From a virus: DNA of 64,000 bases. Below the pieces are notes generated by a model, which searched no databases, was not told the origin of the DNA, and worked only from the letters and a program-made list of their open reading frames with translations. A program made the translations under genes and the position numbers. The stretch covers positions 1 to 64,000 of IMG/VR virus record IMGVR_UViG_3300028920_000045; one strand, written 5' to 3'. Positions 14,542 to 37,177 of this stretch are shown piece after piece (position 1 is the first letter of the stretch; the number at the start of each line of letters is the position of its first letter).

Positions 14542-16032
14542 ATGGCGAGACGAACGACAACGGCGAAGAAGAGAAAGACAGCGACCGGAGCTGCCGAGAG
14601 TCGAGACGAACTCCTCCGGGTCGTGACCGAGTACCAGTCTCTCTCGGACGAGATCATCCGACGGGCCGTGATCGACGAGTCCCGATTCGACATCCTCGCC
14701 TCGGAAGTCCTGGGACTTGAGGTCGAGGAGGCGCACCTTGAACTCCTCGCGTTTGCTCTCCAGCACAAGAACTCCCTTCACCTGGCCTTCCGGGGGTGCG
14801 GGAAGACGACGACTCTCACCGTGGTCTATGCCATCGGTCGAATCCTCCAGGACCCCGAACTCCGAATCTTGATCGGTTCCCAGTCCCTCGGGTACGCGAA
14901 GACCATCCTAAAGGAGATCAAGGGACACCTTGAGTCAGAACGGCTAACCGAGGTCTTCGGTGATCAGAGGTCCCCGACGAAATGGGAGGAGACCGAGGCG
15001 ACCGTCCTGGGGAAGACCAAGGTCACGAAGGAGTCTTCGTTCACGGCCCTCGGGTGTGAGGGTCAGCTCACCGGTCGACACTTCGACATAATCCTCGTCG
15101 ACGACCTGGTCTCCGAGACGAACTGTCGGACCAGAGCCCAGAGGGAAAAGGTCAAGACGTTCTTTTACAAGACCCTCGACCCGTGTCTGGAGCCCGGGGG
15201 TGAGAAGAAGGTGATCGGGACGAGGTATCATCCCCTCGATCTGTACGGTCACCTCTGCGACCACGAGTACTCGTCGTCGGCCCAGATCATCCCCGCCCTC
15301 TTCGAGTACGAGGAGGTCGATCCATCGACCGGGAAGATGGTCACCCGGTACGAGTCGTCGGCTCCTGGTCGGTTCCCGGTCTCGTACCTCCTAGAGAAGC
15401 GGGACACGATCCCGACTATTGTCTGGCTCACGCAGTACCAGTGCGAGACGTCGAGGTACCACGGAAGGGTCTTCCGGCCCGAGTTCTTCGAGAGGGAGGG
15501 GTTCTACTTCTCCGGTCCTCTTCCCGAGGGTTCGTTCAAGTACCAAGCTGTCGACCCGGCCGTCACCGAGGACACGGCAAACGACTTCTTCGCCCTCATG
15601 ACCATCGCCGTCGACGGTGACGGAGACGTCTGGGTCGACTCGTACGACAACGTCCGACTTGAGTTCCCGGACCAACCGGATCACTGTATCGACAGATTCG
15701 ACGAGGAGGACCCGATTCGTCTGGGGATCGAGAGCAACGCTTACCAGAAGGCACTCGGTCAAGAGATCCTCCGACGAGCCCCTCACCTCAAGGGAAGGGT
15801 TGTCCCTCTTTTCACCGACCGGGACAAGATGACTCGGGCTCTCAAGTTGACGGCGTACTTCCAGACTGGCAGGATACACCTCCGTCGAGAGCACTCGGAC
15901 TTGGTTGAGCAGCTCCTAGAGTTCCCGGAAGGCGAGCACGATGATCTATTCGACGCCCTCGACTTGGCCGTCCAGCTAGGGACGAGGACCAGGGTCAAGA
16001 GGAAGCGGCGCAAGGAGTTCGGGGTCCTCTAG
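14542..16032 (+). CDS. terL: Terminase large subunit
   Basis: FRGCGKTT (Walker A), TGRHFDIILVDD (Walker B), IGTRYHPLDLY, AVDPA, IESNAYQ, FPEGEHDDLFDAL. Confidence 0.96.
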   Translation: MARRTTTAKKRKTATGAAESRDELLRVVTEYQSLSDEIIRRAVIDESRFDILASEVLGLEVEEAHLELLAFALQHKNSLHLAFRGCGKTTTLTVVYAIGRILQDPELRILIGSQSLGYAKTILKEIKGHLESERLTEVFGDQRSPTKWEETEATVLGKTKVTKESSFTALGCEGQLTGRHFDIILVDDLVSETNCRTRAQREKVKTFFYKTLDPCLEPGGEKKVIGTRYHPLDLYGHLCDHEYSSSAQIIPALFEYEEVDPSTGKMVTRYESSAPGRFPVSYLLEKRDTIPTIVWLTQYQCETSRYHGRVFRPEFFEREGFYFSGPLPEGSFKYQAVDPAVTEDTANDFFALMTIAVDGDGDVWVDSYDNVRLEFPDQPDHCIDRFDEEDPIRLGIESNAYQKALGQEILRRAPHLKGRVVPLFTDRDKMTRALKLTAYFQTGRIHLRREHSDLVEQLLEFPEGEHDDLFDALDLAVQLGTRTRVKRKRRKEFGVL

Positions 16033-16046
16033 GAAGAGAGGTTCTA

Positions 16047-17996
16047 ATGGCGAAGAAGAAGACCCGAGTCCGACCTAGGCTCAAGGTTCTCAAGGCCGAG
16101 TCGGTCGGTTCCTCCCTGTCCGGTCGGACGCCCTCCGAGGCGGCGGCTTCCGCAACGGTCGACATCGGTTCTCACGACGACGGCCGTCAAGTGGTCAAGG
16201 CTCTGGTCGTCGGACCCGACGCGAAGATCGACGGACCCGTGTCGAGGGCGATGGGCGACGACCCGTTCAAGTCTCTCCTCGGGTCGAAGACCATCCTCGC
16301 CCCGCCTCTCGACCCTCGTCTCCTCTCGACGATCTGGGAGCAGAATACGATCCTCGGTCCGTGTATTGCGACCATGATGGTAAACTGCGAGGCCTTCGGG
16401 TACCAGTTCGTCCCGAGGGTTCCGATCACCGAGAAGACCGACCCGAAGGTCCTCCGTCGGATGGACGAGGAGAGGATCATCCTGGACAACTTCTTCCAGA
16501 ACTCGGTGATCGAGGGCGACCTCTCCTTCACCGGTCTCCGGTTGGAAAAGAGGCGGGACCAGGAGTCCGTCGGGTGGGGGTCCTGGGAAGTGATCGAGGG
16601 TCATGACAACGGACCGATCCTCGGGTTCAATTCCCTCCCCGCTCACACCGTTCGGATGTCCCCCCTTCAGGGTGACCGAGTCGCAGTGAAGAAGAAGATC
16701 CTCGTCCGGGGTGAGGACGGGACTCTTCGGTACGTGGACCGGGTCGTCTGGAGACGGTTCCGGAAGTACGTCCAGGTCCGGGGGAGCAAGATGGTCTGGT
16801 TCCGGGAGTTCGGTGACCCCCGGGTTATGGACTATCGGGACGGGGAGTACAAGGACCCGGCCCGGGTCAAGCCGAAGTACCGGGCGACGTCCGTTCTCTT
16901 CTGGCCCCTCAACACGTCGTCGAGGACACCGTACTCCCTCCCCCGGTACGTCGGGAACCTCCTCGGACTCTACGGGTCCAGAGCTGCCGACGAGACGAAC
17001 TTCTTTACCTTCGAGAGCAACAATATCCCGTCGATGATCGTGACGGTCAGCAACGGGATGCTTTCGGACGGTTCGGTCGAGAGGCTCCAGGAGTTCGTCG
17101 AGAAGGCCGTCCAGGGGTCGAGGAACTATTCCCGCTTCCTGATCCTGGAAGCCGAACCCGTCGTCGAGGGGGTGAGGGAACCAGGGAAGGTCGGGATCAG
17201 CGTGGAGAAGATGTCGGACCAGCAGAGGACCGACGCCATGTTCGTCGATTACAAGAAGGGCGGGACCCGGGAGTGCCGAGCTGCCTACCGACTCCCCGAC
17301 ATCTTTTTCGGTGAGGCCCCGGAGGGAGGTGCGGTCGGAGCCATGACCCTCCTCCGGAAGCTGACCGACGAGCAGGTCTTCCACCCGGAGAGGATGTCCT
17401 TCGACGAGCGGATCAACCGAACGGTTCTCCCTCGTCTCGGGGTCGTGTACCTCAAGATGCAGAGCAACACTCCGGAGACCACGGACAATGCCGACCTGAT
17501 CCGTATCCTGGCGATGGCCGAGAAGTCCGGAGGAGTCACCCCCGGGATCGCCCGTGAGTTCCTCGGTCGGGTCGCCGGTCGTGATCTCGGGATGGTCGAG
17601 TCGATCCCGGCCGACGTCCCGTTCTCCCTCCAGGTCGCCTCGGCCCAGAGGAACCAGGGGGACCCGCTCTCTGCGAACTCGGTCCCAGGGACGAACGCCC
17701 TTCGTCGAATGGGGGCCATGACTCGACGAGACCTGGGGATCGAGAAGTCGGCCGAAGTCGACGAGGACACGGTCGAGGGTGAGGTCCTGATCTCCGCTCT
17801 GTCGGCTCTGGCCGAGAAGGTCGAGAACGCCCTGGTCGAGAAGAGGACAGGACCAGGAGGACACCGAGCAGACGGGACAGGACCTCACGGTCGGGGGATG
17901 GGTCCCGGTGGGGGTCGTGGAGACGGGTCCGGTCTCGACGACGACGAGAAGAAAAAACCAGTCAAGAGGCAGCGGCCGAAGAAGATCAAGACGTGA
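16047..17996 (+). CDS. Portal protein (PBSX/XkdE-like)
   Basis: Follows TerL; DQESVGWGSWEV, YSLPRY, FESNNIPSMIVTV, DAMFVDY, YRLPDIFFG, EQVFHPER. Confidence 0.92.
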   Translation: MAKKKTRVRPRLKVLKAESVGSSLSGRTPSEAAASATVDIGSHDDGRQVVKALVVGPDAKIDGPVSRAMGDDPFKSLLGSKTILAPPLDPRLLSTIWEQNTILGPCIATMMVNCEAFGYQFVPRVPITEKTDPKVLRRMDEERIILDNFFQNSVIEGDLSFTGLRLEKRRDQESVGWGSWEVIEGHDNGPILGFNSLPAHTVRMSPLQGDRVAVKKKILVRGEDGTLRYVDRVVWRRFRKYVQVRGSKMVWFREFGDPRVMDYRDGEYKDPARVKPKYRATSVLFWPLNTSSRTPYSLPRYVGNLLGLYGSRAADETNFFTFESNNIPSMIVTVSNGMLSDGSVERLQEFVEKAVQGSRNYSRFLILEAEPVVEGVREPGKVGISVEKMSDQQRTDAMFVDYKKGGTRECRAAYRLPDIFFGEAPEGGAVGAMTLLRKLTDEQVFHPERMSFDERINRTVLPRLGVVYLKMQSNTPETTDNADLIRILAMAEKSGGVTPGIAREFLGRVAGRDLGMVESIPADVPFSLQVASAQRNQGDPLSANSVPGTNALRRMGAMTRRDLGIEKSAEVDEDTVEGEVLISALSALAEKVENALVEKRTGPGGHRADGTGPHGRGMGPGGGRGDGSGLDDDEKKKPVKRQRPKKIKT

Positions 17997-19067: not shown

Positions 19068-19751
19068 ATGAAGATCAAGGACATTTCGCCCGAGTCCCTG
19101 GAGGGAGTCCCCGACGAGGAACTCCTCTCTCTTCACCTCCGGACGCATCAGCTCTACGGTGCGAACTTCGGTCCGGACGCACCTCCGGACCGGGGGTACC
19201 GGGACGACGAGGGCAACACGGCCGTCGACGGTCTCCTCGTCGGGAACGAGATTGCCCGGAAGATCTGGAAGGACGATCTCGACGAGGTCACCTTCGAGAA
19301 GAAACCGGGGAACGTGGCCCGAGGTCTCTTCCTCGTCTCGCTAAAGTTCACGTACGGGATCATCCGTCTCGGTCTGCCGAAGGAGGGGACCCTCAAGTAT
19401 CCGGTCGAGTACTTCCGACCGTTCAAGGTCCCCCTCCCGTACAAGGCAGCGTCGACGGGTGGGTTCCTGGCCCAGAAGGTCGAGGTCACCTCGGACGAGG
19501 GTCCGCTCTCCCTGGAGACCCTGGTCAACGCTCACCTCTTCATTCTCGACGAGATGGACAAGAGGAACCTCAAGCACCGATGGGCGTCCGAACTCGACGA
19601 CGAGGGGGTCCCCACCGTCGAGAAGGAGGCCGGTCTCTTCGGTCGGGAGGATGCCTACTCCTCGGCCGGTCTGGAGTACTGGGAGGACGACGTCGTCGAC
19701 GACGACGGTGGAGAGGAGGGGGACGGTGTATCGACTTCGCAAGAGGGTTGA
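19068..19751 (+). CDS. Hypothetical head-module protein
   Basis: His motifs LLSLHLRTHQLY and NAHLFILDEMDKRNLKH flanking a beta-rich insert. Confidence 0.75.
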   Translation: MKIKDISPESLEGVPDEELLSLHLRTHQLYGANFGPDAPPDRGYRDDEGNTAVDGLLVGNEIARKIWKDDLDEVTFEKKPGNVARGLFLVSLKFTYGIIRLGLPKEGTLKYPVEYFRPFKVPLPYKAASTGGFLAQKVEVTSDEGPLSLETLVNAHLFILDEMDKRNLKHRWASELDDEGVPTVEKEAGLFGREDAYSSAGLEYWEDDVVDDDGGEEGDGVSTSQEG

Positions 19752-20094
19752 GATCGACTCGTCCCACTACCTCCCCGCTCACCCCGGGAAGTGCCGTCGT
19801 CTTCACGGACACCGATGGGTCTTCGAGGTCGAGGTCACGGCCGAGGACGTCGACGAGACGACCGGGATGGTCGTCGACTTCGGTGACCTGGCCGCACCGA
19901 TCAAGGCCCTCGACCATCGGGTGATCAACGAACTCGATCCGTTCACCCGAATCCCTCCGACGGCCGAGAACCTGGCGAAGTGGGCCGTCGAGGAGGTCTG
20001 GGGTCTGGCACCGACCGCCCTGTCGGTCACGGTCACCGTCTGGGAGACGCCGAGTTCGTCGGTCTCCTGGACGAAGAGGAGAGACGACCGGTGA
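19726..20094 (+). CDS. queD: 6-carboxy-5,6,7,8-tetrahydropterin synthase
   Basis: SHYL, GKCRRLHGHRW, GMVVDFGDL, LDHRVIN, PTAENLA, VWETPSS. Confidence 0.96.
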   Translation: MYRLRKRVEIDSSHYLPAHPGKCRRLHGHRWVFEVEVTAEDVDETTGMVVDFGDLAAPIKALDHRVINELDPFTRIPPTAENLAKWAVEEVWGLAPTALSVTVTVWETPSSSVSWTKRRDDR

Positions 20095-20690
20095 CGTACT
20101 CGGTCTCGGAGGTCTTCTATTCCCTCCAGGGAGAGGGAGTCCGAGCGGGAACCGCCGCCGTCTTCGTCCGGTTCGCCGGGTGTAACCTTCGCTGCACCCG
20201 TGAGGTCGACGGTTTCGATTGTGACACCGTCCACGACCAGAGCTGCCGACTCACGGTCCAGGCCCTCGTCGAGAAGGTCAAGGTCGTCGACCGTGGTCCG
20301 TGTCGGTGGGTCGTCTTCACCGGAGGAGAACCGGGGCTCCAGGTCGACGACGAACTCGTCCGAGCCCTCAAGTCCGAGGGGTACCGCCTCGCCATCGAAA
20401 CGAACGGGACGGTCGACCTCCCGTCCGGTCTCGACTGGGTCACGGTCTCACCGAAGCCGTCGGCTCCTCGACTCGTCGTCCGTCGGGCGAACGAAGTGAG
20501 GTTCGTCCTGGACGAGAGTCGGGTCCCTCACTGTGTCGACGAGATCGACGCCGATCACTACACGGTCTCCCCGGTCTTCGACGGGGACCAGTTCGATCCG
20601 GCAGCTCTGGTCTGGTGCGTTCGGTACTGCCTCCACGACCCACGGTTCCGACTGTCGGTCCAGCAGCACAAGTTTTGGGGTATCCAGTGA
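20091..20690 (+). CDS. queE: 7-carboxy-7-deazaguanine synthase (radical SAM)
   Basis: [21 protein letters not shown]...CDT, FTGGEP, IETNGT, VTVSPK, LSVQQHK. Confidence 0.96.
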
Positions 20691-21256
20691 AAGAAGAAGA
20701 CAGGAAGGAAGCCGAGGGTCTCGTCCGACGGATGATCGAACTCCTGGGGGACGACCCGGACCGACAGGGTCTCAAGGACACCCCGAGTCGAGTGGTCCGT
20801 TCCTGGGAGACCCTCTTCGGGGGGTACGACCAGGACCCGAAGACTCACGTCCGGACCTTCGACACCTCGTACGATCAAGTCGTGGTCGTGAAGGGGATCG
20901 ACTTCTTCTCGACGTGCGAGCACCACCTCTTGCCGTTCCACGGACACGTCGGGGTTGCGTACATCCCGAAGCCGAACGGTCGTGTCCTCGGTCTCTCGAA
21001 GGTGGTCCGGATCGTCGAGGTCTTCGCCCGTCGTCTCCAGATCCAGGAGCAAATGACCCAGCAGATCGCGGAGTCGATACAAGACGCGGTTGACCCTCTC
21101 GGTGTCGCCGTGGTCGTCGAAGGTCTGCACCTCTGTATGATGGCCCGGGGAGTGAAACAGGCCCACGCCTCCGCGACGACGTCGTGTCTCCTCGGACGTT
21201 TCCGGGAGAGTACTTCGGCCAGGGCCGAGGTCCTCTCTCTCCTCAAGGGAGGGTGA
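20687..21256 (+). CDS. folE: GTP cyclohydrolase I
   Basis: [46 protein letters not shown]. Confidence 0.97.
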
Positions 21257-21260
21257 GAGA

Positions 21261-21920
21261 ATGAAGACGGTTGCGATTCTGTCCGGTGGTCTCGACTCGA
21301 CGGTCATGGTCTGGAAACTGATCGCGGACCGGCACAAGGTCAAGGCCCTCGGTTTCAATTACGGTCAACGACACGTCCGGGAACTCCTCCACGCCCGGGA
21401 GGTGGCAGCTCGTCTCGGGATCGAGTTCCGGGATGTCGACCTCACGTCGATCACCCCCCTCCTCGCCGGGAGCGCCCTCACGTCTCCCGAGGTCCCGGTC
21501 CCGGACGACGAGTACAAGGTCGAGACCCTCAAGGTCCTGGTCGTCCCGAATCGAAACATGATCATGCTCGCCGTCGCAACGGGGTGGGCGACGTCCCTCA
21601 AGTACGACTCGGTCTCGTACGCCGCCCACGCCGGGGACCATGAGGTCTATCCCGATTGTCGACCCGAGTTCACCGAGGCACTCGGGGAGGCGATCCGTCT
21701 CTCGGCCATGAGGGAGGTCAACCTCCTCCGTCCGTTCGTCGAGATGTCGAAGGCCGAGATCGTCCGACTGGGTCACGAACTCGGAGTCCCCTTCGAGCTG
21801 ACCTGGTCCTGCTACAAAGGAGACCAGGTCCACTGCGGGACCTGTCCGACGTGCGTGGAGAGGAAGCGGGCGTTCCGTGACGCCCAGGTCCCCGACCCGA
21901 CGGAGTACCTCGACGGATGA
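21261..21920 (+). CDS. queC: 7-cyano-7-deazaguanine (preQ0) synthase
   Basis: SGGLDST, YGQRH, VPNRNMIML, YPDCRPEF, TWSCY, CGTCPTCVERK. Confidence 0.97.
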   Translation: MKTVAILSGGLDSTVMVWKLIADRHKVKALGFNYGQRHVRELLHAREVAARLGIEFRDVDLTSITPLLAGSALTSPEVPVPDDEYKVETLKVLVVPNRNMIMLAVATGWATSLKYDSVSYAAHAGDHEVYPDCRPEFTEALGEAIRLSAMREVNLLRPFVEMSKAEIVRLGHELGVPFELTWSCYKGDQVHCGTCPTCVERKRAFRDAQVPDPTEYLDG

Positions 21921-22420
21921 TCCTCGTTCTCGGATACCTCTTGGCGGCGGTGCTCGCAAACCTCACCGTCGCCCACTTCGGACCGTCGTCGGTCTACGTC
22001 GTGGCCTTCGTCGCCATCGGTTTCGATCTCACCTGTCGGGACCTTCTCCACGAACGCTGGCAGGGACGGTCGTTCCTCCCGAAGATGTCGGCGTTGATCC
22101 TGGTCGGGTCGGTGATCTCATTCGTCCTCAACCGGGACGCCCTCCAGGTCGGACTCGCCTCGTTCTTCGCGTTCCTTCTGGCCGGGACTTCCGACTCGGT
22201 CGTGTACCATCGGCTCCGGTTCCGGTCTCGCTTTGTCCGGGTCAACGGATCGAACGTCGTGTCGTCCGGGGTTGACTCGCTGGTATTCCCGACGCTAGCC
22301 TTCTGGGGATTCGACCCGACCGTGACTCTGGGTCAGTTCTTCGGGAAGGTCCTCGGAGGTCTTGTCTGGGCCTGGATTCTGGGCAAGACGATCTGGAGAC
22401 CCCGAAGGGAGGACGACTAG
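21917..22420 (+). CDS. yhhQ: VUT/YhhQ-family preQ0/preQ1 transporter-like membrane protein
   Basis: Multi-TM; LTCRDLLHERW, RVNGSNVVSSGVDSLVFPTLAF, GQFFGKVLGG; adjacent to que genes. Confidence 0.85.
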   Translation: MILVLGYLLAAVLANLTVAHFGPSSVYVVAFVAIGFDLTCRDLLHERWQGRSFLPKMSALILVGSVISFVLNRDALQVGLASFFAFLLAGTSDSVVYHRLRFRSRFVRVNGSNVVSSGVDSLVFPTLAFWGFDPTVTLGQFFGKVLGGLVWAWILGKTIWRPRREDD

Positions 22421-22421
22421 G

Positions 22422-25400
22422 ATGGCCCTCTCGCACAAGGACTTCTTTTATTACGTCGAAATGAATCCGGCACACTGGAGGAGGTTCGCCCATATCCTCC
22501 AGGGCGAGGACGTCCTGATCTCCTTCATTCACCTCACGAAGAAGAAGGACCCCCGTCGGACCTTCACCGAGGAACTCAAGAAACACTCGGGGCGGGTCAT
22601 GATCGACTCGGGTGGGTTCTCCAATTTCACCCGACCCGGGACGGTCCGCTTCGACGAGTGGGCCGAGTACGTCAAGGACGCGAAGTCGTGGTGCGACGAG
22701 TACGTGACCTTCGACGACCTCGGGTCCAGGTCTCGGACCCTCAAGTTCTTCGCCAAGGCTCGGAAGCTCGGTCTCGACCCCCTCTTCGTCGACCACCTCT
22801 GGATGCGAACCCAGAGGACCGAGGTCGACGCGATCTGGAAGTCGGCCGACAAGCTCTGTCTCTCCGGGTTCGCCCGGACCCTCCCGACGCAGAAGCCGTT
22901 TCCCGGTGACCCGAAAGCCCGGGTACACGAGGCCTTCGAGAAGGGGCGAGAGCACAAGACCTCGACTCACCTCCTCGCCGTGTCCTCTCTCCGTCGGTTC
23001 CTGCCCTACCTGGATCGAGTTCACTCCGTCGACTCGGCGGGGTGGGCCAAGGGAGCGGCGTTCGGGGCCGTCCTGATCTTCGACCCCGAGGACCTCGGGG
23101 GAGGTCTCGTCGTCCCCCGGGTCCGGGCCTACCGGTACCCCGGAGGAACGTCGGAGACGAACGCCGTCCTCTCGGCTGACCAGAAGAGAGAGTCCTGGGA
23201 CTATCCTCTCCGGAAGTTCAAGGTCCCGACCCACTGGGCTTTGCCCCAGAGGGCGAAGGCCGTCTCTCTCTGGAACCTCAAGCGGTACATCAAAGCCGTT
23301 AAGAAGGTGGACCCCGACGACCTCCGGAAGAGGATCGCCCAGAGAGCCGAGGAGAAGAAGGTCTCGAAGTCGACGACGTACTTCTTCCTCGACGGGGACG
23401 ACTTCGACTTCGACGGGATGGAACCGGTCGAGAAGAAGAAGGCCGAAGCCGAGATCGACCGAGACGAGATCAAGGGTTATCTTGATCAGGCCGGGGACTT
23501 CGTCGTCGTTCCCGAGTTCGTCTCCCTGGTCGGGTCGATGGTCACGGGTGATCCCGAGACTCCTCCCCAGGATGTCGACCTCCTCGTCCGTGGTCTACAA
23601 CCCGACCCGAAGATCGAACTCAAGCTCGACCGGATCTTCCCCCCGGAGGTTCGTGAGCACGTCTCGATCATCTTCGATCCCCAGGGACCGAACTGGGACT
23701 CCCTCCCGTTGTACGACCTGGTCTGTCGTCGACGGACGGACGACCAGGTCAAGGCCGTCGACGAGCCGGGGTACAAGCCCTTCCCGTCTCGACATCCGGT
23801 CACGAAGGCCACGGTCAGGGTCGGTCGTCCGTTCACCCCCCTCAAGGCTCGGGGTGGATACCACCTCGGGGAGTTCTTCGACCTCGGTCCTCTCTGGGAC
23901 CTCTGGGTCGACCCGAACCTCAAGTCGGGGAAGTCCATCGCCGTCGAGCCGAAGTACGACGGGATCAGGTTCACGGTCCACAAGGACGGAGACAAGGTCT
24001 GGGTCTTCACCGAAGACGAGAAGAGAGACCGGGCCGAGATCCTGGTCGACGTCGTCGAGGAGGTCAAGGGACTCAAGCCCGACCGACTGATCCTCGACGG
24101 TGAGCTGGTGAAGTGGGAAAAGGGTCAACCTCTCGCCCGTCACGACATGATGGACCTCGTCGTCGGCAAGGACCCGATCAAGGGCGAGGACCTCCGACTC
24201 AACGTCTTCGACGTCGTCTGGGCCGACGACGAGTCACTCGTCGACTCGACCTGGGAGGACCGACAGAAGGCCCTGCGAACGGTCCTCCCGGAAGACGGGA
24301 AGCACCTCCGACGAGTCCGTCCTCGGGTCGTCTCGAATCGACGGGAGTTCACCGCCGCCCTCAAGTGGGCTCGGAACTTCGTCGGTTCCGAAGGGGCGAT
24401 GCTCAAGTTGACCGACTCCCCGTACGACCTCGACGGTCGCACCGGAGCCTGGGCCAAGCTCAAGGACGTATTCGAGATCAAGTGCGTCGTGATCGGTGTC
24501 CGCAAGAAGATGCCGACCGACCAGGAGGACCCGAAGTTCCGGTCGTCCCCCGGCCGGTGGACCTTCGAGGGGATCAAGGACCCGTCTGCCTACACGTACC
24601 GGTGCGCCGTCCGTGGTCGAGGAGGACAGCTCGTTCCCATCGAAGGGGAGAGGACGTACACCGACTCGGACCTCAAGGTCCGGTACGTCAAGGCCGGGGA
24701 CAAGGACCCGGTCACCGGACAGGTCGCCTCGACCTCGGGGTGGAAGGGTGTCGACGACCCGGCACTCTGGAAGATGGGTCGAGGGTTCAAGAGTCGAGGT
24801 GCGGGCGACCTGGAGTACGGGATCACGTACAACACGGGGACCGAGGCCGAGATCGGTGACGTGATCACGGTCTCCCCTGTCCTGGTCCGTGACTGGGTCG
24901 GTGAGGACGGTCGACGACACTACTCCTGGACGTTCCCTATCGTTCGGGAGGCAGACCCGACCCGGGAGAAGCCCGACACCGTCGAGGACCTCCGACGGAT
25001 CGCGGAGTCCTCGTCCGACCGTTCCCCCGAGAAGGAACCGAAGCCCGAAGAGGTCCAGGCGGCAGCTCTCTCGCCGTCGACCCTCCGACTCTCCTACCTC
25101 CAGAAACAGAAGAGGACGGACCTCGACCCGGACGAGACGAGCCGTGAAGAGTCGAGGGAACTCACCGAGGCTCTCACGGGTGATCCCTACCAGGTCGAGC
25201 AGAAGGGAGCGAAGTCGTACCCGTTCGTCTTCCAGTACCATTATCGAGGGTTCTGGTCGGACGAGGAGAGGGACCAGCTCCGGAAGGCACTGGTCCGGGC
25301 CAGAGCTGCCAGAGACCGAGGTGAGAAGGACGAGGCTAGGACTCTCCTCAAGGGACTCTGGCAGGAGTTCTCTCCGCTCCGTCTCAAGGCACCGGTTGAG

Positions 25401-26546
25401 GAGATCCGAGAAGCGGCGAACCGGGCCGACGACGCAGGGGAGGGGAACGTCTCCCCGACCGTCCGTCGGTTCCTCGACGACAAGGTCCCCGACCTCGACG
25501 AACTCGACGACGTCGAGAAGAAGATCGTCAACCTCGGGAACGTCCACGGCGATCTGCGAATGAAGTCTCCCGAGGGGAACTGGCTCGTCGGGTGGACACT
25601 CGATACCCCGAAGACGGCGGTCCAGACTCTCGGCGGGGAGGCCACTCCTCTCCTCCGGTCGATGGTCACCGACAACGAACCAGGGGACAACGTCGTCTCT
25701 CAACGGAAGCTCGTCCAGCCGGTGTCGTGGCTCAAGGTGGTCACGAAGGACAAGCCGGTTAAGAAGATCGGTCCGGGCGACGTCGGGTCGACCAGGGGGA
25801 CCTCGGCCGAGTACCATTACGTCGACTCCGGTGAGGTTGTCTTCGGAGCACAGAAGACGGACTTTCACGAGTACTTCTTCTTCCCGAAGTCGGGGAAGTG
25901 GGGAGGTCGGTGGGGCGTCCAGTTGATCGAGGGTCGCCCCGATTACGAACGAGTCCCCGGCGAGTTCTGGATCACGAACCGACCGGCCAAGACCCAGACG
26001 CCCTATATCCAGACCCACGACCGGAAGGTCGAGGAGGAGAAGGCGAAGAAGGACAAGGTCGACCTCGTCTGGAACGAGGACACGATCAAGGCCCTCCGGA
26101 GGAAGAAGTACCCCGACCTGGCCGACGTGAAGAAGTCGACCGGCACGGACGCGGACACCGACGAACGGCAGCGGGTGTCGATCTCGATCCCGATTGTCAA
26201 GGTGGCGAAGGAGGAGCGGTACATCATGGGGATCGTCATGATCCCCGAAGTCGCTGACGCCCACGGTGAGGTTACCTCTGCGGAGGAGATCAGACAGGCC
26301 GCTCACAAATTCCTTGCGCGGGGTCCGAAGATCGGCTATCAACATAGCGAGACCCCCGGAGGCTTGACCCTGCTGGAGAGTTACATTGCGCCGGTCGACT
26401 TCGCACTCGGTACCAGGAAGATCGTCAAGGGGACGTGGCTCATGGCCGTCCGGGTCGACAACGACAAGATCTGGAAGGAAGTCAAGGACGGGACGATCAC
26501 CGGTTTCAGTATCGAGGGGTACGCCCGCAAAGTGCCGGTGACCTGA
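22422..26546 (+). CDS. Multidomain protein: TGT/DpdA-like transglycosylase + nucleotidyltransferase-like + ATP-dependent DNA ligase + LigD phosphoesterase-like + XkdF-type prohead protease
   Basis: LISF/MIDSGGFS/HLLAV/SVDSAGW; VGS...DVDLLVR; EPKYDG/ILDGE/VFDVV/EGAMLK/WAKLK; FVFQYH...HGDLR...LVGWT; GIVMIPEVADAHGE/YQH/LESY/GTWLM/GFSIEG. Confidence 0.88.
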   Translation: MALSHKDFFYYVEMNPAHWRRFAHILQGEDVLISFIHLTKKKDPRRTFTEELKKHSGRVMIDSGGFSNFTRPGTVRFDEWAEYVKDAKSWCDEYVTFDDLGSRSRTLKFFAKARKLGLDPLFVDHLWMRTQRTEVDAIWKSADKLCLSGFARTLPTQKPFPGDPKARVHEAFEKGREHKTSTHLLAVSSLRRFLPYLDRVHSVDSAGWAKGAAFGAVLIFDPEDLGGGLVVPRVRAYRYPGGTSETNAVLSADQKRESWDYPLRKFKVPTHWALPQRAKAVSLWNLKRYIKAVKKVDPDDLRKRIAQRAEEKKVSKSTTYFFLDGDDFDFDGMEPVEKKKAEAEIDRDEIKGYLDQAGDFVVVPEFVSLVGSMVTGDPETPPQDVDLLVRGLQPDPKIELKLDRIFPPEVREHVSIIFDPQGPNWDSLPLYDLVCRRRTDDQVKAVDEPGYKPFPSRHPVTKATVRVGRPFTPLKARGGYHLGEFFDLGPLWDLWVDPNLKSGKSIAVEPKYDGIRFTVHKDGDKVWVFTEDEKRDRAEILVDVVEEVKGLKPDRLILDGELVKWEKGQPLARHDMMDLVVGKDPIKGEDLRLNVFDVVWADDESLVDSTWEDRQKALRTVLPEDGKHLRRVRPRVVSNRREFTAALKWARNFVGSEGAMLKLTDSPYDLDGRTGAWAKLKDVFEIKCVVIGVRKKMPTDQEDPKFRSSPGRWTFEGIKDPSAYTYRCAVRGRGGQLVPIEGERTYTDSDLKVRYVKAGDKDPVTGQVASTSGWKGVDDPALWKMGRGFKSRGAGDLEYGITYNTGTEAEIGDVITVSPVLVRDWVGEDGRRHYSWTFPIVREADPTREKPDTVEDLRRIAESSSDRSPEKEPKPEEVQAAALSPSTLRLSYLQKQKRTDLDPDETSREESRELTEALTGDPYQVEQKGAKSYPFVFQYHYRGFWSDEERDQLRKALVRARAARDRGEKDEARTLLKGLWQEFSPLRLKAPVEEIREAANRADDAGEGNVSPTVRRFLDDKVPDLDELDDVEKKIVNLGNVHGDLRMKSPEGNWLVGWTLDTPKTAVQTLGGEATPLLRSMVTDNEPGDNVVSQRKLVQPVSWLKVVTKDKPVKKIGPGDVGSTRGTSAEYHYVDSGEVVFGAQKTDFHEYFFFPKSGKWGGRWGVQLIEGRPDYERVPGEFWITNRPAKTQTPYIQTHDRKVEEEKAKKDKVDLVWNEDTIKALRRKKYPDLADVKKSTGTDADTDERQRVSISIPIVKVAKEERYIMGIVMIPEVADAHGEVTSAEEIRQAAHKFLARGPKIGYQHSETPGGLTLLESYIAPVDFALGTRKIVKGTWLMAVRVDNDKIWKEVKDGTITGFSIEGYARKVPVT

Positions 26547-26568
26547 TCTGGGGCAAAGGGATTCGAGC

Positions 26569-27597
26569 ATGTCGAGCACACCCGAGACGACGACAACCGA
26601 GAAGAAGGCCGAACGTCGTCTCGTCGATCTCCAGGTTTCAAACGTCGACCTCGTCGACGACGCCGCGAACGAAACGACGTTCTCTGTCGTGAAACGGAAG
26701 GAGGGCCGAGGGATGGCCGCAAAGAAGTCGAAGGTCCAGAAGTCGGAGGAAGAGACGGTCGCCACCGAGGTCGCCGGGGACGAGTCCACGTCGGGGGGCG
26801 AGACCACCGAGGAGTCGACCGAGGAGACCACCGAGGAGTCGACCGAGGAGTCGGCCGAGGACGGCGGCTCCGAGACCGTCGGGAACGACGGCGGTGACCC
26901 CCAGGCCGCGATCCTCAACGGCGTGTCGAAGACCGCCGAGGCCGTGACCCAGCTCGGGGAGCGGCTCGACCAGTTCCTCAAGGCCATGTCCGGGAAGAAG
27001 GACAAGACGAAGAAGGAGGACGAGGAGGACGACTCCGAGGGCGTCGAGAAGCAGACCGGCGGGGACATGGTCAAGATGATCAAGGACCACCTCGCCGCCG
27101 CCCTCAAGGTCACGGACCTCCCGGCCGACGCGAAGACCGAGATCGACGCGGCCATCGCCGTCCTCGGGAAGATGGGGACGTACCCCGACGCGAAGTCGAA
27201 GGACGGCGAGGAGGTCACCAAGGCCGGTCGGGTCTTCTCCGCGAAGAACCTCAAGACCATGAAGACGGCCTTCGAGGCCCTCGACTCCCTGATCAAGATG
27301 GTCGAGTCCGAGGCCGAGGACACGACCAAGGGGAAGACGAAGAAGACCGAGGACGAGGACGGCGACGAGAAGGTGACCAAGGCCGTCGACGGTGCCGACC
27401 AGGTGACCAAGGCCGTCAAGGGTCTCACCGCCGTCGTCGAGAAGGTGACCAAGCGGCTCGACGACGTCGAGGGGCTCGTCGGCGTCTCGAAGTCCCTGGG
27501 CGACGACGAGGACGGCGACGACAACTCGACCGTCCAGGAGTCCGGGACCTGGGACTCGCTGGGGCTGATCCCCGACGAGTTCACCGGCCAGAAGTAG
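26569..27597 (+). CDS. Scaffold-like protein (XkdF N- and C-terminal parts without protease core)
   Basis: RRLVDLQVSNVDLVDDAAN...F, TKAGRVFSAKNL, acidic coiled coil; directly before capsid gene. Confidence 0.82.
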   Translation: MSSTPETTTTEKKAERRLVDLQVSNVDLVDDAANETTFSVVKRKEGRGMAAKKSKVQKSEEETVATEVAGDESTSGGETTEESTEETTEESTEESAEDGGSETVGNDGGDPQAAILNGVSKTAEAVTQLGERLDQFLKAMSGKKDKTKKEDEEDDSEGVEKQTGGDMVKMIKDHLAAALKVTDLPADAKTEIDAAIAVLGKMGTYPDAKSKDGEEVTKAGRVFSAKNLKTMKTAFEALDSLIKMVESEAEDTTKGKTKKTEDEDGDEKVTKAVDGADQVTKAVKGLTAVVEKVTKRLDDVEGLVGVSKSLGDDEDGDDNSTVQESGTWDSLGLIPDEFTGQK

Positions 27598-27684
27598 ATC
27601 GCCCCGGGGTTGAACCCGGGATCGTGAACACGGGGCTCCGGTGGGGATACCGTGGCCCGAAAGAGAAAGGACAGGAGGCCCACA

Positions 27685-28899
27685 ATGGCAGTCGGAAACC
27701 CCGAGGTGCTCCGTAAGGCCGTGATCACGACCGACGCGATCACGACCGCAGGCAAGCTCAACCCCGAGCAGGCCGACAAGTTCATCGACTACGTCTTCGA
27801 CGTGACCAAGCTCAAGGGGAACGCCCGGACGATCAAGTTCCGGTCGGAGCAGTACTACATCGACAAGATCGGTGTCGGGGCGCGGGTCGCGGTGCCGAAG
27901 GTCGAGGCCAAGGACCCCGGGGTCCGTCGGGGCGTGTCGACGTCCCGGGTCACCCTGCACCCGCAGGAGATCATGTGCCCCTTCGAGATCTCGTACCAGA
28001 TGCTCGAACAGAACCTCGAAGGGGAGGCCCTGGCCGAGAAGCTGATCCGTCTCTTCTCGATCCAGTTCGGGAACGACATGGAGGAGCTGTGCATCCAGGG
28101 TGACCAGCTCGGTCGCGCGGTCCTCCAGTCCGAGTACATCGACGGCGGCGACCCGACCCGGTACGTCCGGGACAACTATCTCAAGCTCCAGGACGGCTGG
28201 CTCACCCTGGCGCGGGCGGGTCACGGGGTCGATGCGGACCAGGCCAACGTGTCGAACCGGATCTTCTCCCGGCTCCTCAACGCCCTCCCCGAGAAGTTCA
28301 AGCGGAACCGTGGTCAGCTCCGGTTCTTCTGCTCGACCGACCTGGAGCAGAACTACCGCGAGAAGGTCTCGGCCCGCGCGACCGGCAAGGGCGACCAGGC
28401 CCTCATGTCCGAGGTCCCGCTGACCCCGTACGGGATTCCGCTGATCGGCGTCCCGCTCCTGCCGATGGGTCCCCGGATCGTCGAGCACGTCGTCCTGACC
28501 GGCACCACGGCGGTCCCCCTGCTCTACAAGGGGATCACCTCGGTCGTCGTGCTCCCGTCCGACCTGGACCAGACCCCGACCACGCCGTACGTCGAGGGCT
28601 CGGGCAACGACTACAACCTCACGACCGCCGCCGACGGGACCGTGTCCATCGCCCGCGACGGTGCGTCGACCATCCCCTCCGGGGCGACGGTCAAGGTGAC
28701 GTACTCGGCCCTGGCCCAGATCATCCTCACGCACGAGAGCAACATGATCGTGGGGCTGAACAAGGACACCGTCCGTCTGGAACGGGACCGCGACATCTTC
28801 GCGGGCGTCCTCCAGTTCGCCCTCACCGCCGACCTCGCCGTCGAGTACGAGGAGGCCGACGCCATCGCCTTCGCCTACAACGTCGGGACCGACGTCTAG
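27685..28899 (+). CDS. Major capsid protein (XkdG/HK97-fold type)
   Basis: GKLNPEQADKFID, IDKIGVGARV, LEQNLEGE, FGNDMEELCIQGD, DGWL, ALPEKF; highly expressed codon style. Confidence 0.93.
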   Translation: MAVGNPEVLRKAVITTDAITTAGKLNPEQADKFIDYVFDVTKLKGNARTIKFRSEQYYIDKIGVGARVAVPKVEAKDPGVRRGVSTSRVTLHPQEIMCPFEISYQMLEQNLEGEALAEKLIRLFSIQFGNDMEELCIQGDQLGRAVLQSEYIDGGDPTRYVRDNYLKLQDGWLTLARAGHGVDADQANVSNRIFSRLLNALPEKFKRNRGQLRFFCSTDLEQNYREKVSARATGKGDQALMSEVPLTPYGIPLIGVPLLPMGPRIVEHVVLTGTTAVPLLYKGITSVVVLPSDLDQTPTTPYVEGSGNDYNLTTAADGTVSIARDGASTIPSGATVKVTYSALAQIILTHESNMIVGLNKDTVRLERDRDIFAGVLQFALTADLAVEYEEADAIAFAYNVGTDV

Positions 28900-33879: not shown

Positions 33880-34379
33880 TGCTGGCAACGATCAGTCACC
33901 CCGATCCGACGGTCCCTCTCGACAAGGCCCGGATCGCCTCGTACAAGCCCGAACTCAACGCAGGACAGGGACGACTCTGGCTCGAAGTCTGGGTCGTCCT
34001 GGGGAAGCTCCTGGACCCCGAGGACGAGGACTCCTTCGTCGAATACCCGGTCCCGTCAACCGGAGCCGCCGCCCTCGAATTCAAGATCGAGGACGGGGTC
34101 CATCCGTTGCGACCGGGAACGGGTCTCGGGAAGTGTGACCAGTGCGGGGAGTGGCACCCGAGGATGTCCGGTCCCTGCGGTCTTCCAGGTTGTGAGGGGA
34201 CCGTGATCATGTACGACGGTTTCTCTCGCATCCGGACACCTCCGGAGGAGATCGACGGGGACTGTTGCTTTCTGATCCATTCCGCGAAGATGCTGGAGTT
34301 CCTGGTCAACGAAGAGGTCCCGGACCCGGATACCTGGGAGATGGTCAAGGTCCTCGACGCGACCCTCAACGGAGGCTGA
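33879..34379 (+). CDS. Hypothetical protein with Cys motifs
   Basis: TAATG coupling; CDQC...CGLPGC. Confidence 0.7.
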   Translation: MLATISHPDPTVPLDKARIASYKPELNAGQGRLWLEVWVVLGKLLDPEDEDSFVEYPVPSTGAAALEFKIEDGVHPLRPGTGLGKCDQCGEWHPRMSGPCGLPGCEGTVIMYDGFSRIRTPPEEIDGDCCFLIHSAKMLEFLVNEEVPDPDTWEMVKVLDATLNGG

Positions 34380-34381
34380 TC

Positions 34382-37177
34382 ATGTCGACCGTCCGAATCC
34401 AGACGGGGGCGACCGAGAGGATCGAGTACCTCGTCCGCGACGGGAGTCTGTCTCCCCTCACCGGGAAGTCTGACATCCTGGTCTCGATCCGTCGGATCTC
34501 GGATGGTCAGTACCTCGACTTCGACGACGACACGTTCAAGTCTTCGGGGTGGACGACCAGGCAGACGGCGATGTCGGAGGTGAGCGCGACGTACTCCCCG
34601 GGGACGTACTCGTACGACTTCGACACCTCGTCGATCACGAACCCGACGACCGACGACACGTACGTCGCCCGGGTCGAGCAGAGCCCCGGGACCGACGCGG
34701 CGAACCTCCCGGCCGAGGGAGAGATCAAGGTCGGGGAGTGGGTCGACGACATCGACGCTCCGATCTCTGGCCGGGCCGCTCCCGGTGACGCGATGGACCT
34801 GGTCACCGACGCCGTCGACTCCGACGCCGTTGCGACCTCGGGAGCGAACGAGATCCGAGACTCGATCCTCTCCGACTCGACTCCCTTTGCCGGTGCCGAC
34901 ATCGACGTGGCGATCTCGTCGAGGTCCTCTCATACTGCCAACGACGTACGAGATTCGATCCTCTCCGACTCCACTCCATTCCAGGGGGCGAGGATCGACG
35001 CGGCGATCTCGTCGAGGTCTTCCCATACCGCTAACGACGTACGGGATGCCATTCTCTCCGACTCGACTCCCTTTGCCGGTGCCGACATCGACGCGGCGAT
35101 CTCCAGTCGGTCGAGTCACACCCCGGCCGATGTCGATACCGAACTCTCGGGAACCCACGGGGCCGGATCATGGGAGGACGACTCCCCCACTCCCGGCGAC
35201 GTGGCCGACGCCGTCTGGGACGAGGCTCTCTCCGGACACACCGGACCGGGTACGGCAGGGGAAGCCCAGAGTCACCTCGACGCGGACGTCTCCTCCCGGG
35301 CGACCCAGGCCGACATCTTGTCGGATGCGACTCCCTTCCCCGGTGGGAACGTCGACGCCCAGATCTCGACCAGGTCGAGCCACACTCCCGGGGACGTGGA
35401 CACGGTCCTCTCGGGGACTCACGGTTCCGGCTCCTGGGAGGACGACTCTCCGACTCCGGGTGACGTGGCCGACGCTGTCTGGGACGAGGACCTCACCGGT
35501 CACACCGATCCGAACTCGGCCGGTGAGTCCCTGGGTCGAGTCGACGTTGACGTCTCGTCGAGGTCGAGTCACACCCCGGCCGATGTCGACACCGAACTCT
35601 CGGGGAGTCACGGTTCGGGATCGTGGGAATCCCCTTCGGTCGGTGACATCGCAGACGGAGTCTGGGACGAAGACGTCACGGCTCACACAGGTCCGAACTC
35701 GACCGGCGAGGCCCAGAACAGACTCGACGCGGACGTGTCGTCGAGGGCGGCTCCTACCGACATCCTCTCCGACTCGACTCCCTTCCAGGGTGCGAGGATC
35801 GACGCGGCGATCTCCAGCCGGTCGGACCATACCCCGGCCGACGTGGACACGGTCCTCTCTGCCTCTCACGGGGCGGGTTCCTGGGAGGACGACTCCCCGA
35901 CTCCGGGTGACGTCGCAGACGCGGTCTGGGACGAGGACCTCTCCGGTCACTCGACTCCGGGGTCGGCGGGTGAGCACCAGTTGAGACTCAATGCGACCGT
36001 CGACAGTCGGGCGACCCAGGCCGACATCTTGTCGGATGCGACCCCCTTCCAGGGGGCTCGGGTCGACGCGGCGATCTCGTCGAGGTCCTCTCACACCCCG
36101 GCAGACGTGGACACGGTCCTCTCGGGTTCTCACGGCTCGGGGTCCTGGGAGGACGACTCCCCTGCCCCGGGTACCATCGCGGGGGCCGTCTGGGACGAGG
36201 ACGTCACGACTCACACCGCTCCGAACTCGGCCGGTGAGGCACAGAACCGTCTCGACGCGGACGTCTCCTCCCGGTCGAGTCACACCCCGGCAGACGTGGA
36301 CACCGAACTCTCGGGGAGTCACGGGTCCGGGTCCTGGGAGGTCGACTCCGGGATCATCGCAGACGCGGTCTGGGACGAGGCCCTCTCCGGTCACTCCGCT
36401 CCGGGCTCGACCGGTGAAGCCCAGTCCCACCTCGACGCGGACGTGTCGTCGAGAGCGGTCCAGGGCGATGCGATGGACCTGGTCAACGACGCGGTTGACT
36501 CGGCCAGCCTCGCAACCTCCGGGGTGAACGAGATCCGAGACTCGATCCTCTCCGACTCGACTCCGTTCCCCGGTGGGAACGTCGACGCCCAGATCTCGTC
36601 GAGGTCCTCTCACACCCCGGCCGATGTCGACACCGAACTCTCGGGGAGTCACGGGGCGACCTCCTGGGAGACGGGACCGTCGGTCGGTGACATCGCAGAC
36701 GGAGTCTGGGACGAGGCTCTCTCCGGTCACTCCACCCCGGGGTCGACGGGAGAAGCCCAGGGCCACCTCGACGTCGACGTGTCGACCAGGTCGGACCATA
36801 CCCCGGCCGATGTCGATACCGAACTCACGGCAGCTCACGGGTCGGGTGCCTGGAATACGGGAGACCCGTCGGCCATCGCAGACGCGGTCTGGGACGAGGA
36901 CCTCTCCGGTCACACCGGACCGGGGTCGGCGGGTGAGTCGATGGGACGTCTCGACGTCGACGTGTCGACCAGGTCCTCGCACACCCCGGCCGACGTGGAT
37001 ACGGAACTCACAGCTCAACACGGGTCGGGGTCGTGGGAGGCCGCGTCCGTTGACCCGTCGGCAATCGCAGACGCCGTCTGGGACGAACTCGCAGAGGACC
37101 ACGTCTCGTCGGGGTCGATGGGCGAGCTACAGAACCGAGTCGACGACGGGTCCCCGTTCTCGTCCGGTCACCTCTAA
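34382..37177 (+). CDS. Large Ser/Asp/Thr/His-rich repeat protein, probable virion fibre or decoration
   Basis: N-terminal beta domain followed by about nine (D/G)(A/G)VWDE units, about nine SHTPADVDT...HGSGSW units and about seven ILSD(S/A)TPF units. Confidence 0.82.
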   Translation: MSTVRIQTGATERIEYLVRDGSLSPLTGKSDILVSIRRISDGQYLDFDDDTFKSSGWTTRQTAMSEVSATYSPGTYSYDFDTSSITNPTTDDTYVARVEQSPGTDAANLPAEGEIKVGEWVDDIDAPISGRAAPGDAMDLVTDAVDSDAVATSGANEIRDSILSDSTPFAGADIDVAISSRSSHTANDVRDSILSDSTPFQGARIDAAISSRSSHTANDVRDAILSDSTPFAGADIDAAISSRSSHTPADVDTELSGTHGAGSWEDDSPTPGDVADAVWDEALSGHTGPGTAGEAQSHLDADVSSRATQADILSDATPFPGGNVDAQISTRSSHTPGDVDTVLSGTHGSGSWEDDSPTPGDVADAVWDEDLTGHTDPNSAGESLGRVDVDVSSRSSHTPADVDTELSGSHGSGSWESPSVGDIADGVWDEDVTAHTGPNSTGEAQNRLDADVSSRAAPTDILSDSTPFQGARIDAAISSRSDHTPADVDTVLSASHGAGSWEDDSPTPGDVADAVWDEDLSGHSTPGSAGEHQLRLNATVDSRATQADILSDATPFQGARVDAAISSRSSHTPADVDTVLSGSHGSGSWEDDSPAPGTIAGAVWDEDVTTHTAPNSAGEAQNRLDADVSSRSSHTPADVDTELSGSHGSGSWEVDSGIIADAVWDEALSGHSAPGSTGEAQSHLDADVSSRAVQGDAMDLVNDAVDSASLATSGVNEIRDSILSDSTPFPGGNVDAQISSRSSHTPADVDTELSGSHGATSWETGPSVGDIADGVWDEALSGHSTPGSTGEAQGHLDVDVSTRSDHTPADVDTELTAAHGSGAWNTGDPSAIADAVWDEDLSGHTGPGSAGESMGRLDVDVSTRSSHTPADVDTELTAQHGSGSWEAASVDPSAIADAVWDELAEDHVSSGSMGELQNRVDDGSPFSSGHL
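34780..37140 (+). repeat. Degenerate coding tandem repeats within 34382..37177
   Basis: Recurring GTCTGGGACGA, CACACCCCGGC and TCCGACTCGACTCC blocks, all in frame. Confidence 0.9.

Follow-up and report, generated by a model that had tools for sequence, protein, structure and literature searches.

An XkdF-type head protease at the C-terminus of a phage polyvalent protein with predicted DNA-hypermodification and DNA-repair domains: a candidate for loading into the capsid

P0002 is a 1374-residue phage protein. Its gene lies in the opening 64 kb of an IMG/VR virus record of 107,749 bp (IMGVR_UViG_3300028920_000045, rated 95% complete); this stretch of 64,000 nucleotides was analysed as a whole and is referred to here as the window. 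A single chain combines a DpdA-like transglycosylase domain, a probable pol-beta-type nucleotidyltransferase (NTase)-like domain, an ATP-dependent DNA ligase domain, a LigD-type 3'-phosphoesterase (PE) domain and, at its end, an XkdF-type head-maturation protease domain. The reading we favour, at somewhat better than an even chance, is that P0002 is a capsid-loaded polyvalent protein anchored by its protease domain. The uncultured source phage is contractile-tailed, since sheath, tape-measure and baseplate genes were found, and its DNA was found in marine sediment metagenomes.

The P0002 frame comprises 1374 codons on the + strand, from an ATG at 22422 to a TGA at 26544-26546, and its start codon is preceded by a GGGAGG ribosome-binding site and by the stop codon of the upstream gene. 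The initial annotation, made from the letters of the sequence, had described one uninterrupted frame of this size with five motif blocks. The frame was found intact, and all quoted motifs were found in the protein, i.e. LISF, MIDSGGFS, SVDSAGW, GS..DVD, KYDG (at 23952), ILDGE, EGAMLK, WAKLK, FVFQYH..HGDLR..GWT, YQH and GFSIEG. The transglycosylase, ligase, phosphoesterase and protease blocks proposed there were borne out by the profile, structural and alignment evidence given below, while the pol-beta block stood only in part. A contig from the sediment metagenome of a different study spans positions 22300-26700 without a break and differs by 84 substitutions and 0 indels; among the 40 of these substitutions that were listed and counted by codon position, 36 fell on third positions of the P0002 frame. 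As indels were absent and the changes were mostly at third positions, the whole chain is coding and under purifying selection. The fusion is kept by relatives at 32-66% identity on independent contigs and is common to dozens of independent metagenomic proteins. No RNA dataset was listed as carrying the P0002 stretch, and short pieces were all that runs X3 and X4 contained.

The XkdF domain, on which the proposed anchoring depends, was matched by PF14550 over residues 1258-1370 (E 2e-29, 102 bits against a cut-off of 24), and the residues D1279, H1308 and S1363 were kept in 57 of 57 relatives, supporting its assignment as a head protease with predicted proteolytic activity. It was the only match in the genome among the five head-protease families searched; the S78, ClpP, S49 and S77 families gave none. 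The gene order around it is that of a head module, with terminase, portal, a MuF-like gene, one unknown gene, the preQ0 genes, P0002, a scaffold-like gene and the capsid gene following one another. An internal start yielding a free protease was considered at codon 1269 (26226), no other in-frame ATG inside the gene having a strong Shine-Dalgarno-like sequence, and was rejected; initiation there would delete the first strand of the domain, and the methionine is not conserved. Conserved Lys-Glu-Glu codons probably give rise to this Shine-Dalgarno-like sequence as a by-product.

The terminal position of XkdF recurred among relatives. An exhaustive HMMER search found 173 relatives of the DpdA-like domain, and in 46 of the 56 clusters nearest to it (matches with E up to 1e-10) XkdF was the last domain. 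The modules between the DpdA-like and XkdF ends varied and included NTase-like, ligase, PE and Dam methylase domains and a second tRNA-guanine transglycosylase (TGT) domain. P0004, from a syntenic 113-kb phage, showed the same chain without the ligase, and in P0003 the TGT domain was replaced by an unknown N-terminus and a Dam methylase was added, so that close relatives exchange modules around a constant NTase-PE-XkdF frame. The PE domain remained adjacent to XkdF even in relatives lacking the ligase. Cargo in other XkdF fusions included UDG, SAM methylases, InPase, AAA and NUDIX domains. Among deposited phages no DpdA-XkdF fusion was detected with the queries tried; 'DNA methyltransferase/prohead protease' fusions are annotated there, e.g. 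in Rhizobium phage RHph_TM16 and in Lactococcus phages. Gene neighbourhoods of relatives were read for two IMG/VR loci, L003 and L004. In L004, from a third phage (4045-11347), the NTase-like and ligase domains formed one gene and Dam-PE-XkdF another, with a pectate-lyase-like gene between them inside the head module.

Domain 1 was identified as a DpdA/TGT-type DNA-guanine transglycosylase, with a predicted exchange of guanine for preQ0, by several lines of evidence. PHROG 887 (queuine tRNA-ribosyltransferase) matched it at E 5e-11, and a profile built from 92 homologues matched PDB 7UI4, a solved DNA-guanine transglycosylase, at E 2.4e-8, with the DSGG and SVDS motifs of domain 1 aligned to it. 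The only invariant columns in the alignment of the 92 homologues were D62, D98 and D204. They correspond to the three catalytic Asp residues of TGT and of bacterial DpdA; in bDpdA these are D95, D130 and D256, serving as general acid/base, in base recognition and as nucleophile (PMC10164549). The AlphaFold2 (AF2) model of the domain (pLDDT 85, pTM 0.84) retrieved TGTs as all 50 matches listed in a Foldseek search of the PDB, with a probability of 1.00 and a TM-score of about 0.5. The Pfam TGT model PF01702 gave no match in the phage genome, no Pfam family matched any of the 92 members, and tblastn of the domain against 50,697 phage records was negative. Through a stand-alone homologue of domain 1, a connection was found to 251 phage records whose annotation is DpdA or queuine tRNA-ribosyltransferase. 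The genome gave no further TGT-like match. A complete set of preQ0 genes together with a YhhQ/Vut_1-type membrane transporter was observed inside the head module, between the MuF-like and protease genes, which is an unusual location for metabolic genes.

The ligase adenylation domain was matched by PF01068 over residues 503-681 (E 5e-26, 92 bits against a cut-off of 26.2), by NCBIfam ligase families and by PDB ligases at E 3e-20; the motif I lysine is K511 in KYDG, and EGAMLK and WAKLK are also there. This supports its assignment as a predicted ATP-dependent DNA ligase, the only one in the genome. Matches to ligase families and PDB sequences ended at residues 696-698, and the following region (residues ~701-865) occupies the position expected for the ligase OB domain. 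In front of the ligase, the pol-beta signature LVGS-x11-DVDLLV and D419 were conserved in about 22 relatives, scored as G[SG]-x9-12-DhD with a downstream conserved Asp; this fits the pattern hG[GS]-x9-13-Dh[DE]h with a third carboxylate. The pol-beta assignment made in the initial annotation is thus backed by the motif and D419; Pfam gave no match, and an Atlas language model offered a weak lead to NTP_transf_2 (0.82-0.85). Residues 345-450 are therefore a probable pol-beta-type NTase by motif. Outside these relatives the NTase-like part matched one ligase gene only, that of the archaeal virus ANMV-1 (KP703175.1; 3200-5800 of locus L007), annotated 'ATP-dependent DNA ligase'. The alignment consists of two pieces lying between P0002 residues 366 and 1196 (39% of the query), so that the NTase-like, ligase and PE-like modules seem to be common to both proteins, XkdF being absent from that of ANMV-1.

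The PE domain was recognised by its fold. Its AF2 model (pLDDT 92.5) had PE structures as its six best Foldseek matches, and in VIA-align the best five entries were LigD phosphoesterases (Z 9.6-12.8, the next unrelated match at 5.2), led by 3P43 (Z 12.8, root-mean-square deviation 2.3 A over 123 of 124 residues), with 3P4H at Z 12.4 and 3N9B at Z 11.2; the eight-stranded PE barrel could be observed in the model. H940, H1042, D1044 and R1046 were invariant in an alignment of 22 relatives. The corresponding chemistry is known from CkoPE, where H9, H15 and D17 bind Mn, R19 binds phosphate, and H51 and Y55 serve as the second phosphate-binding His and as Tyr (PMC3082917). The region also holds the invariant residues K1096, W1103 and E1150, and a mostly conserved His at 1149. 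The pattern VxQxHxRGxSxHxDLR...GWTL is unbroken in most relatives and is split by a helical insert of about 90 residues in P0002 and its closest kin. Sequence searches gave no comparable signal, as Pfam LigD_N (PF13298) matched nothing in the genome with the threshold relaxed as far as E 10, and PDB profile searches with the PE region and with a mixed alignment returned noise only; a single protein was found as a short stand-alone relative. The model and the conserved metal ligands and arginine support a LigD 3'-phosphoesterase fold and a predicted enzyme.

Two references were matched by the protein encoded directly downstream of P0002: PHROG 3017, in its C-terminal half, and an XkdF-scaffold protein from Bacillus phage BMBtp14, in its scaffold part. 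The latter is arranged as tag ISYVDKAANKKQFFLTK, then protease, then scaffold part, whereas in the phage studied here the tag VDLVDDAANETTFSVVK and the scaffold part are on the downstream protein, an arrangement repeated in L003 and L004. At the N-terminus of the scaffold-like proteins stands the tag motif, h-V-D-x-[AG]-A-N/V ... F/V-x-h-h-K (window 26602-26694, i.e. scaffold residues 12-42; L003 12912; L004 11415; L011 1543), which in the canonical Bacillus phage protein stands at the head of the XkdF protease; its appearance is that of a docking or cleavage tag that these proteins have in common. When XkdF was modelled with scaffold residues 1-80, the complex scored 0.74, against 0.00 for the best of three controls; this mark is reached by 58 of 80 solved complexes and by 2 of 110 mismatched pairs. 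The runs had at least 77% of contacts in common, with a partner pLDDT of at least 46. In the modelled interface the N-terminal tag (scaffold residues 12-32, ..RRLVDLQVSNVDLVDDAAN..) pairs with the C-terminal strand of the protease domain that bears S1363, indicating how a split version of tag and protease could bind. Short V-[S/T/K]-K-[S/A] sequences were present in three of the four interdomain linkers of P0002 (residues 314, 460 and 1236), and the scaffold contained five [VIL]-x-K-[ASG] sites where 1.6 were expected. As V-[S/T/K/Q]-K-[S/A], the motif of the linkers returned in the scaffold at residues 56, 216, 269, 279 and 306; it is a possible protease site. At the end of the P0002 gene (ACC TGA T, 26541-26571) the scaffold frame is open from 26542, and a +1 shift, which ACC-TGA-T could in principle allow, would fuse the polyprotein to the scaffold. 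No stimulatory signal for such a shift was seen at the stop codon; the same +1 frame relation was observed in L003.

In the mechanism that we propose, the P0002 gene would be read together with the head genes, and the C-terminal XkdF domain would bind the scaffold, the product of another gene, at its N-terminal tag strand; by this binding, the whole 150-kDa chain would be built into the procapsid alongside scaffold and capsid protein. The Ser/His/Asp protease would then cut the scaffold and probably also its own linkers, freeing the DpdA-type transglycosylase, the NTase-like domain, the ligase and the LigD-type phosphoesterase as internal head proteins. The freed enzymes would stay with the DNA and act during packaging or, as we think likelier, exit the capsid with it, whereupon breaks in the incoming 7-deazaguanine-modified genome would be healed and sealed. 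Until proheads capture them, copies of the chain could put preQ0 from the pathway of the neighbouring genes into replicated DNA. Loading, cleavage and ejection, as well as all the enzyme activities, are inferred. The idea that the protease acts as a cargo carrier had been put forward in the initial annotation, and it received indirect support: XkdF is the last domain and the sole head protease detected, the scaffold and capsid genes come immediately after it, and the tag docks onto it in the model.

Several points weigh against loading. A DpdA enclosed in the capsid would have no obvious use where free preQ0 is lacking, and the incoming DNA should already be modified. Some 100 copies of a 150-kDa chain would crowd the procapsid, so that most of them would need to be degraded or expelled. 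The positive docking result may do no more than mirror how canonical XkdF proteins are arranged within one chain, and in the complex model the fold of the scaffold partner is itself uncertain. There are few V-x-K sites, and two of them are missing from P0004, the closest relative; XkdF itself is still termed a 'putative' protease. Sequence searches did not confirm a ligase OB domain, nor did the PE alignment confirm the second catalytic His of the phosphoesterase.

The polyprotein might instead work in the cytoplasm, which we consider unlikely but the most credible of the alternatives. The fusion would then only secure late, co-ordinated synthesis with the head proteins, and the enzymes would act on concatemers before packaging, DpdA inserting preQ0 while PE and ligase mend the nicks from abortive base exchange or nucleases that would otherwise stall the terminase; only the protease part, or no cargo at all, would reach the heads. 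The substrates preQ0 and ATP are indeed cytoplasmic, and the preQ0 pathway and a YhhQ-type importer are probably co-transcribed upstream, but co-expression does not require a covalent fusion. A cytoplasmic site would likewise suit a polyprotein that provides the sole ATP-dependent ligase of the genome and the sole TGT-like match found in it, yet it leaves unexplained why XkdF is terminal in so many of the related clusters, why unrelated cargoes (Dam, UDG, InPase, NUDIX) have the same anchor, and why the scaffold tag could be modelled on the protease domain. Every phage DpdA studied so far acts after replication in the cytoplasm (PMC10516641).

We think it distinctly improbable that modification is coupled to packaging, such that DpdA and its repair partners work in the prohead or at its mouth, only DNA being encapsidated receives 7-deazaguanine, and the enzymes are then destroyed by the protease and not injected. 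Base exchange is slow relative to DNA translocation, and no precedent was found in the literature searched, even though members of the DpdA-like clade are nearly always linked to the head protease, the modification genes lie within the head module, and the same anchor serves methylases, another group of enzymes that flip bases in duplex DNA. The remaining explanation, that separate genes were joined by mis-assembly or by a lost stop codon, had been named in the initial annotation as a way in which its proposal could fail, and it can practically be dismissed: the gene is known from metagenome assemblies only, but the contig from another study spans all of it without indels and with changes mostly at synonymous positions, and the independent relatives retain their fusions.

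Capsid loading of P0002 would have its closest parallel in the polyvalent proteins of phages. In these, an assemblin-like head peptidase, where there is one, invariably forms the C-terminal end, and it is likely to process the protein as assembly proceeds (PMC5512222; Iyer et al. 2017). Like P0002, they are long chains of unrelated enzyme domains from the head module, for which packaging and delivery along with the DNA are predicted, and they have InPase, NUDIX and methylase cargo in common with the relatives of P0002 (PMC5512222). The marks of such proteins were found here: several unrelated enzyme domains, a portal-terminase context, and modules shuffled in relatives. Unlike their SH/assemblin peptidase anchor, that of P0002 is XkdF (PF14550), which the same group regards as unrelated to SH/assemblin peptidases. 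TGT/DpdA, DNA ligase and LigD-PE were not found as domains in the text of that paper, which reports pol-beta NTases only in proteins of conjugative elements (PMC5512222). In the literature searched, no paper was found in which a head protease is fused to DpdA, ligase or PE, nor one in which XkdF is their anchor. The initial annotation's statement that it knew of no description of this architecture accordingly stands for the DpdA, ligase and LigD-PE cargo and for the XkdF anchor; it does not stand for the general design, given the polyvalent proteins with a C-terminal head peptidase (PMC5512222) and the annotated methyltransferase/prohead protease fusions, and P0002 therefore extends a known kind.

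Phage DpdAs (DpdA1-4 and bDpdA; PMC6884629, PMC10516641, PMC10164549) resemble domain 1 in the TGT fold, the three invariant Asp residues and the adjoining FolE, QueD, QueE and QueC genes, but those described are free-standing, whereas the P0002 clade is mostly fused to a head protease and lies outside the Pfam families. The word 'protease' is absent from both phage DpdA papers; the search for 'capsid' covered just one of the two. In bacterial non-homologous end joining, LigD likewise joins a 3'-phosphoesterase fold with H..H-x-D-x-R to an ATP-dependent ligase in one polypeptide; P0002 differs in the reversed order (ligase before PE), the lack of Ku and of a primase-polymerase domain, the PE insert of about 90 residues, and the failure of its PE domain to match the Pfam LigD_N model. 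The canonical XkdF-scaffold proteins (PHROG 3017; gp58 of Bacillus phage vB_BtS_BMBtp14) share with the P0002 locus the protease domain, a place ahead of the capsid gene, the N-terminal tag motif and the scaffold C-terminus, but in the P0002 locus tag and scaffold belong to a second protein encoded downstream, and the protease comes after 1250 residues of enzyme domains. DarB of phage P1 and the internal proteins and Alt of T4 are loaded by partner proteins or a short capsid-targeting sequence, and not by fusion to a protease. Their logic, in which head-borne enzymes acting on DNA or on the host are released with the genome, is the same as that proposed for P0002 (PMC5512222).

Table 1. Features of the P0002 gene and of the surrounding head module, in window coordinates.
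Feature	Position	Strand	Basis or remark
Whole polyvalent gene, 1374 aa (P0002)	22422-26546	+	Uninterrupted frame, ribosome-binding site before ATG, independent contig without indels
Predicted DpdA-like DNA-guanine transglycosylase domain, residues ~1-320	22422-23381	+	PHROG 887, 7UI4 profile match, invariant Asp, AF2/Foldseek
Probable minimal pol-beta-type NTase-like domain, residues ~345-450	23454-23771	+	Motif G371-S372 ... D384-V-D386 ... D419
Predicted ATP-dependent DNA ligase adenylation domain, residues ~470-700	23829-24521	+	PF01068, NCBIfam, PDB ligases
Region after ligase core, residues ~701-865	24522-25016	+	Conserved with P0003, no family match
Predicted LigD 3'-phosphoesterase-fold domain, residues ~932-1190	25215-25991	+	AF2, Foldseek, VIA-align; H940, H1042, D1044, R1046 conserved
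Helical insert of PE domain, ~90 residues, ~946-1035	25257-25526	+	
Predicted XkdF-type head-maturation protease domain, residues 1258-1370	26193-26531	+	PF14550; D1279, H1308, S1363
Large terminase	14542-16032	+	
Portal	16047-17996	+	
MuF-like minor head protein, 354 aa	17993-19057	+	
preQ0 supply genes	19735-22420	+	Directly upstream of P0002
QueD	~19735-20094	+	
QueE	within 19980-20690	+	
FolE	~20690-21256	+	
QueC	21261-21920	+	
YhhQ/Vut_1-type precursor transporter	21917-22420	+	
Scaffold-like protein, 342 aa	26569-27597	+	C-terminal half of PHROG 3017; BMBtp14 scaffold part
Major capsid / virion structural protein	27652-28899	+	PHROG 1623, E 2e-69

Two further observations concern other genes of these phages. 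The MuF-like head protein of L003 (3158-6859), the syntenic 113-kb relative, is polyvalent and 1233 aa long, as against 354 aa in the window, and includes a HipA/PI3K-like kinase region. In the tail region of the window, three large ORFs of 970, 497 and 1094 aa (34265-37177, 55059-56552 and 56565-59849, + strand) had no PHROG match.

According to present descriptions, phage DNA is modified with 7-deazaguanine by free DpdA enzymes that act in the cytoplasm after replication. The relatives of P0002 form a large, uncatalogued DpdA-like clade that is physically joined to a capsid-maturation protease, often together with a ligase and a 3'-end-cleaning enzyme. That this clade acts inside the assembling capsid, either hypermodifying only the DNA being encapsidated or carrying the enzymes into the next cell, is a rather unlikely generalisation; if true, DNA hypermodification would be a virion-associated function and not a purely cytoplasmic and post-replicative one. 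The concept of polyvalent proteins is extended to enzymes of DNA repair and hypermodification, and concrete proteins are offered for assay. If the P0002 chain is loaded into heads, the XkdF domain and the scaffold tag would constitute a natural modular handle for cargo loading, usable for packing proteins into phage capsids, and the virions would carry their own kit for DNA modification and repair, a new layer of defence for anti-restriction and genome integrity.

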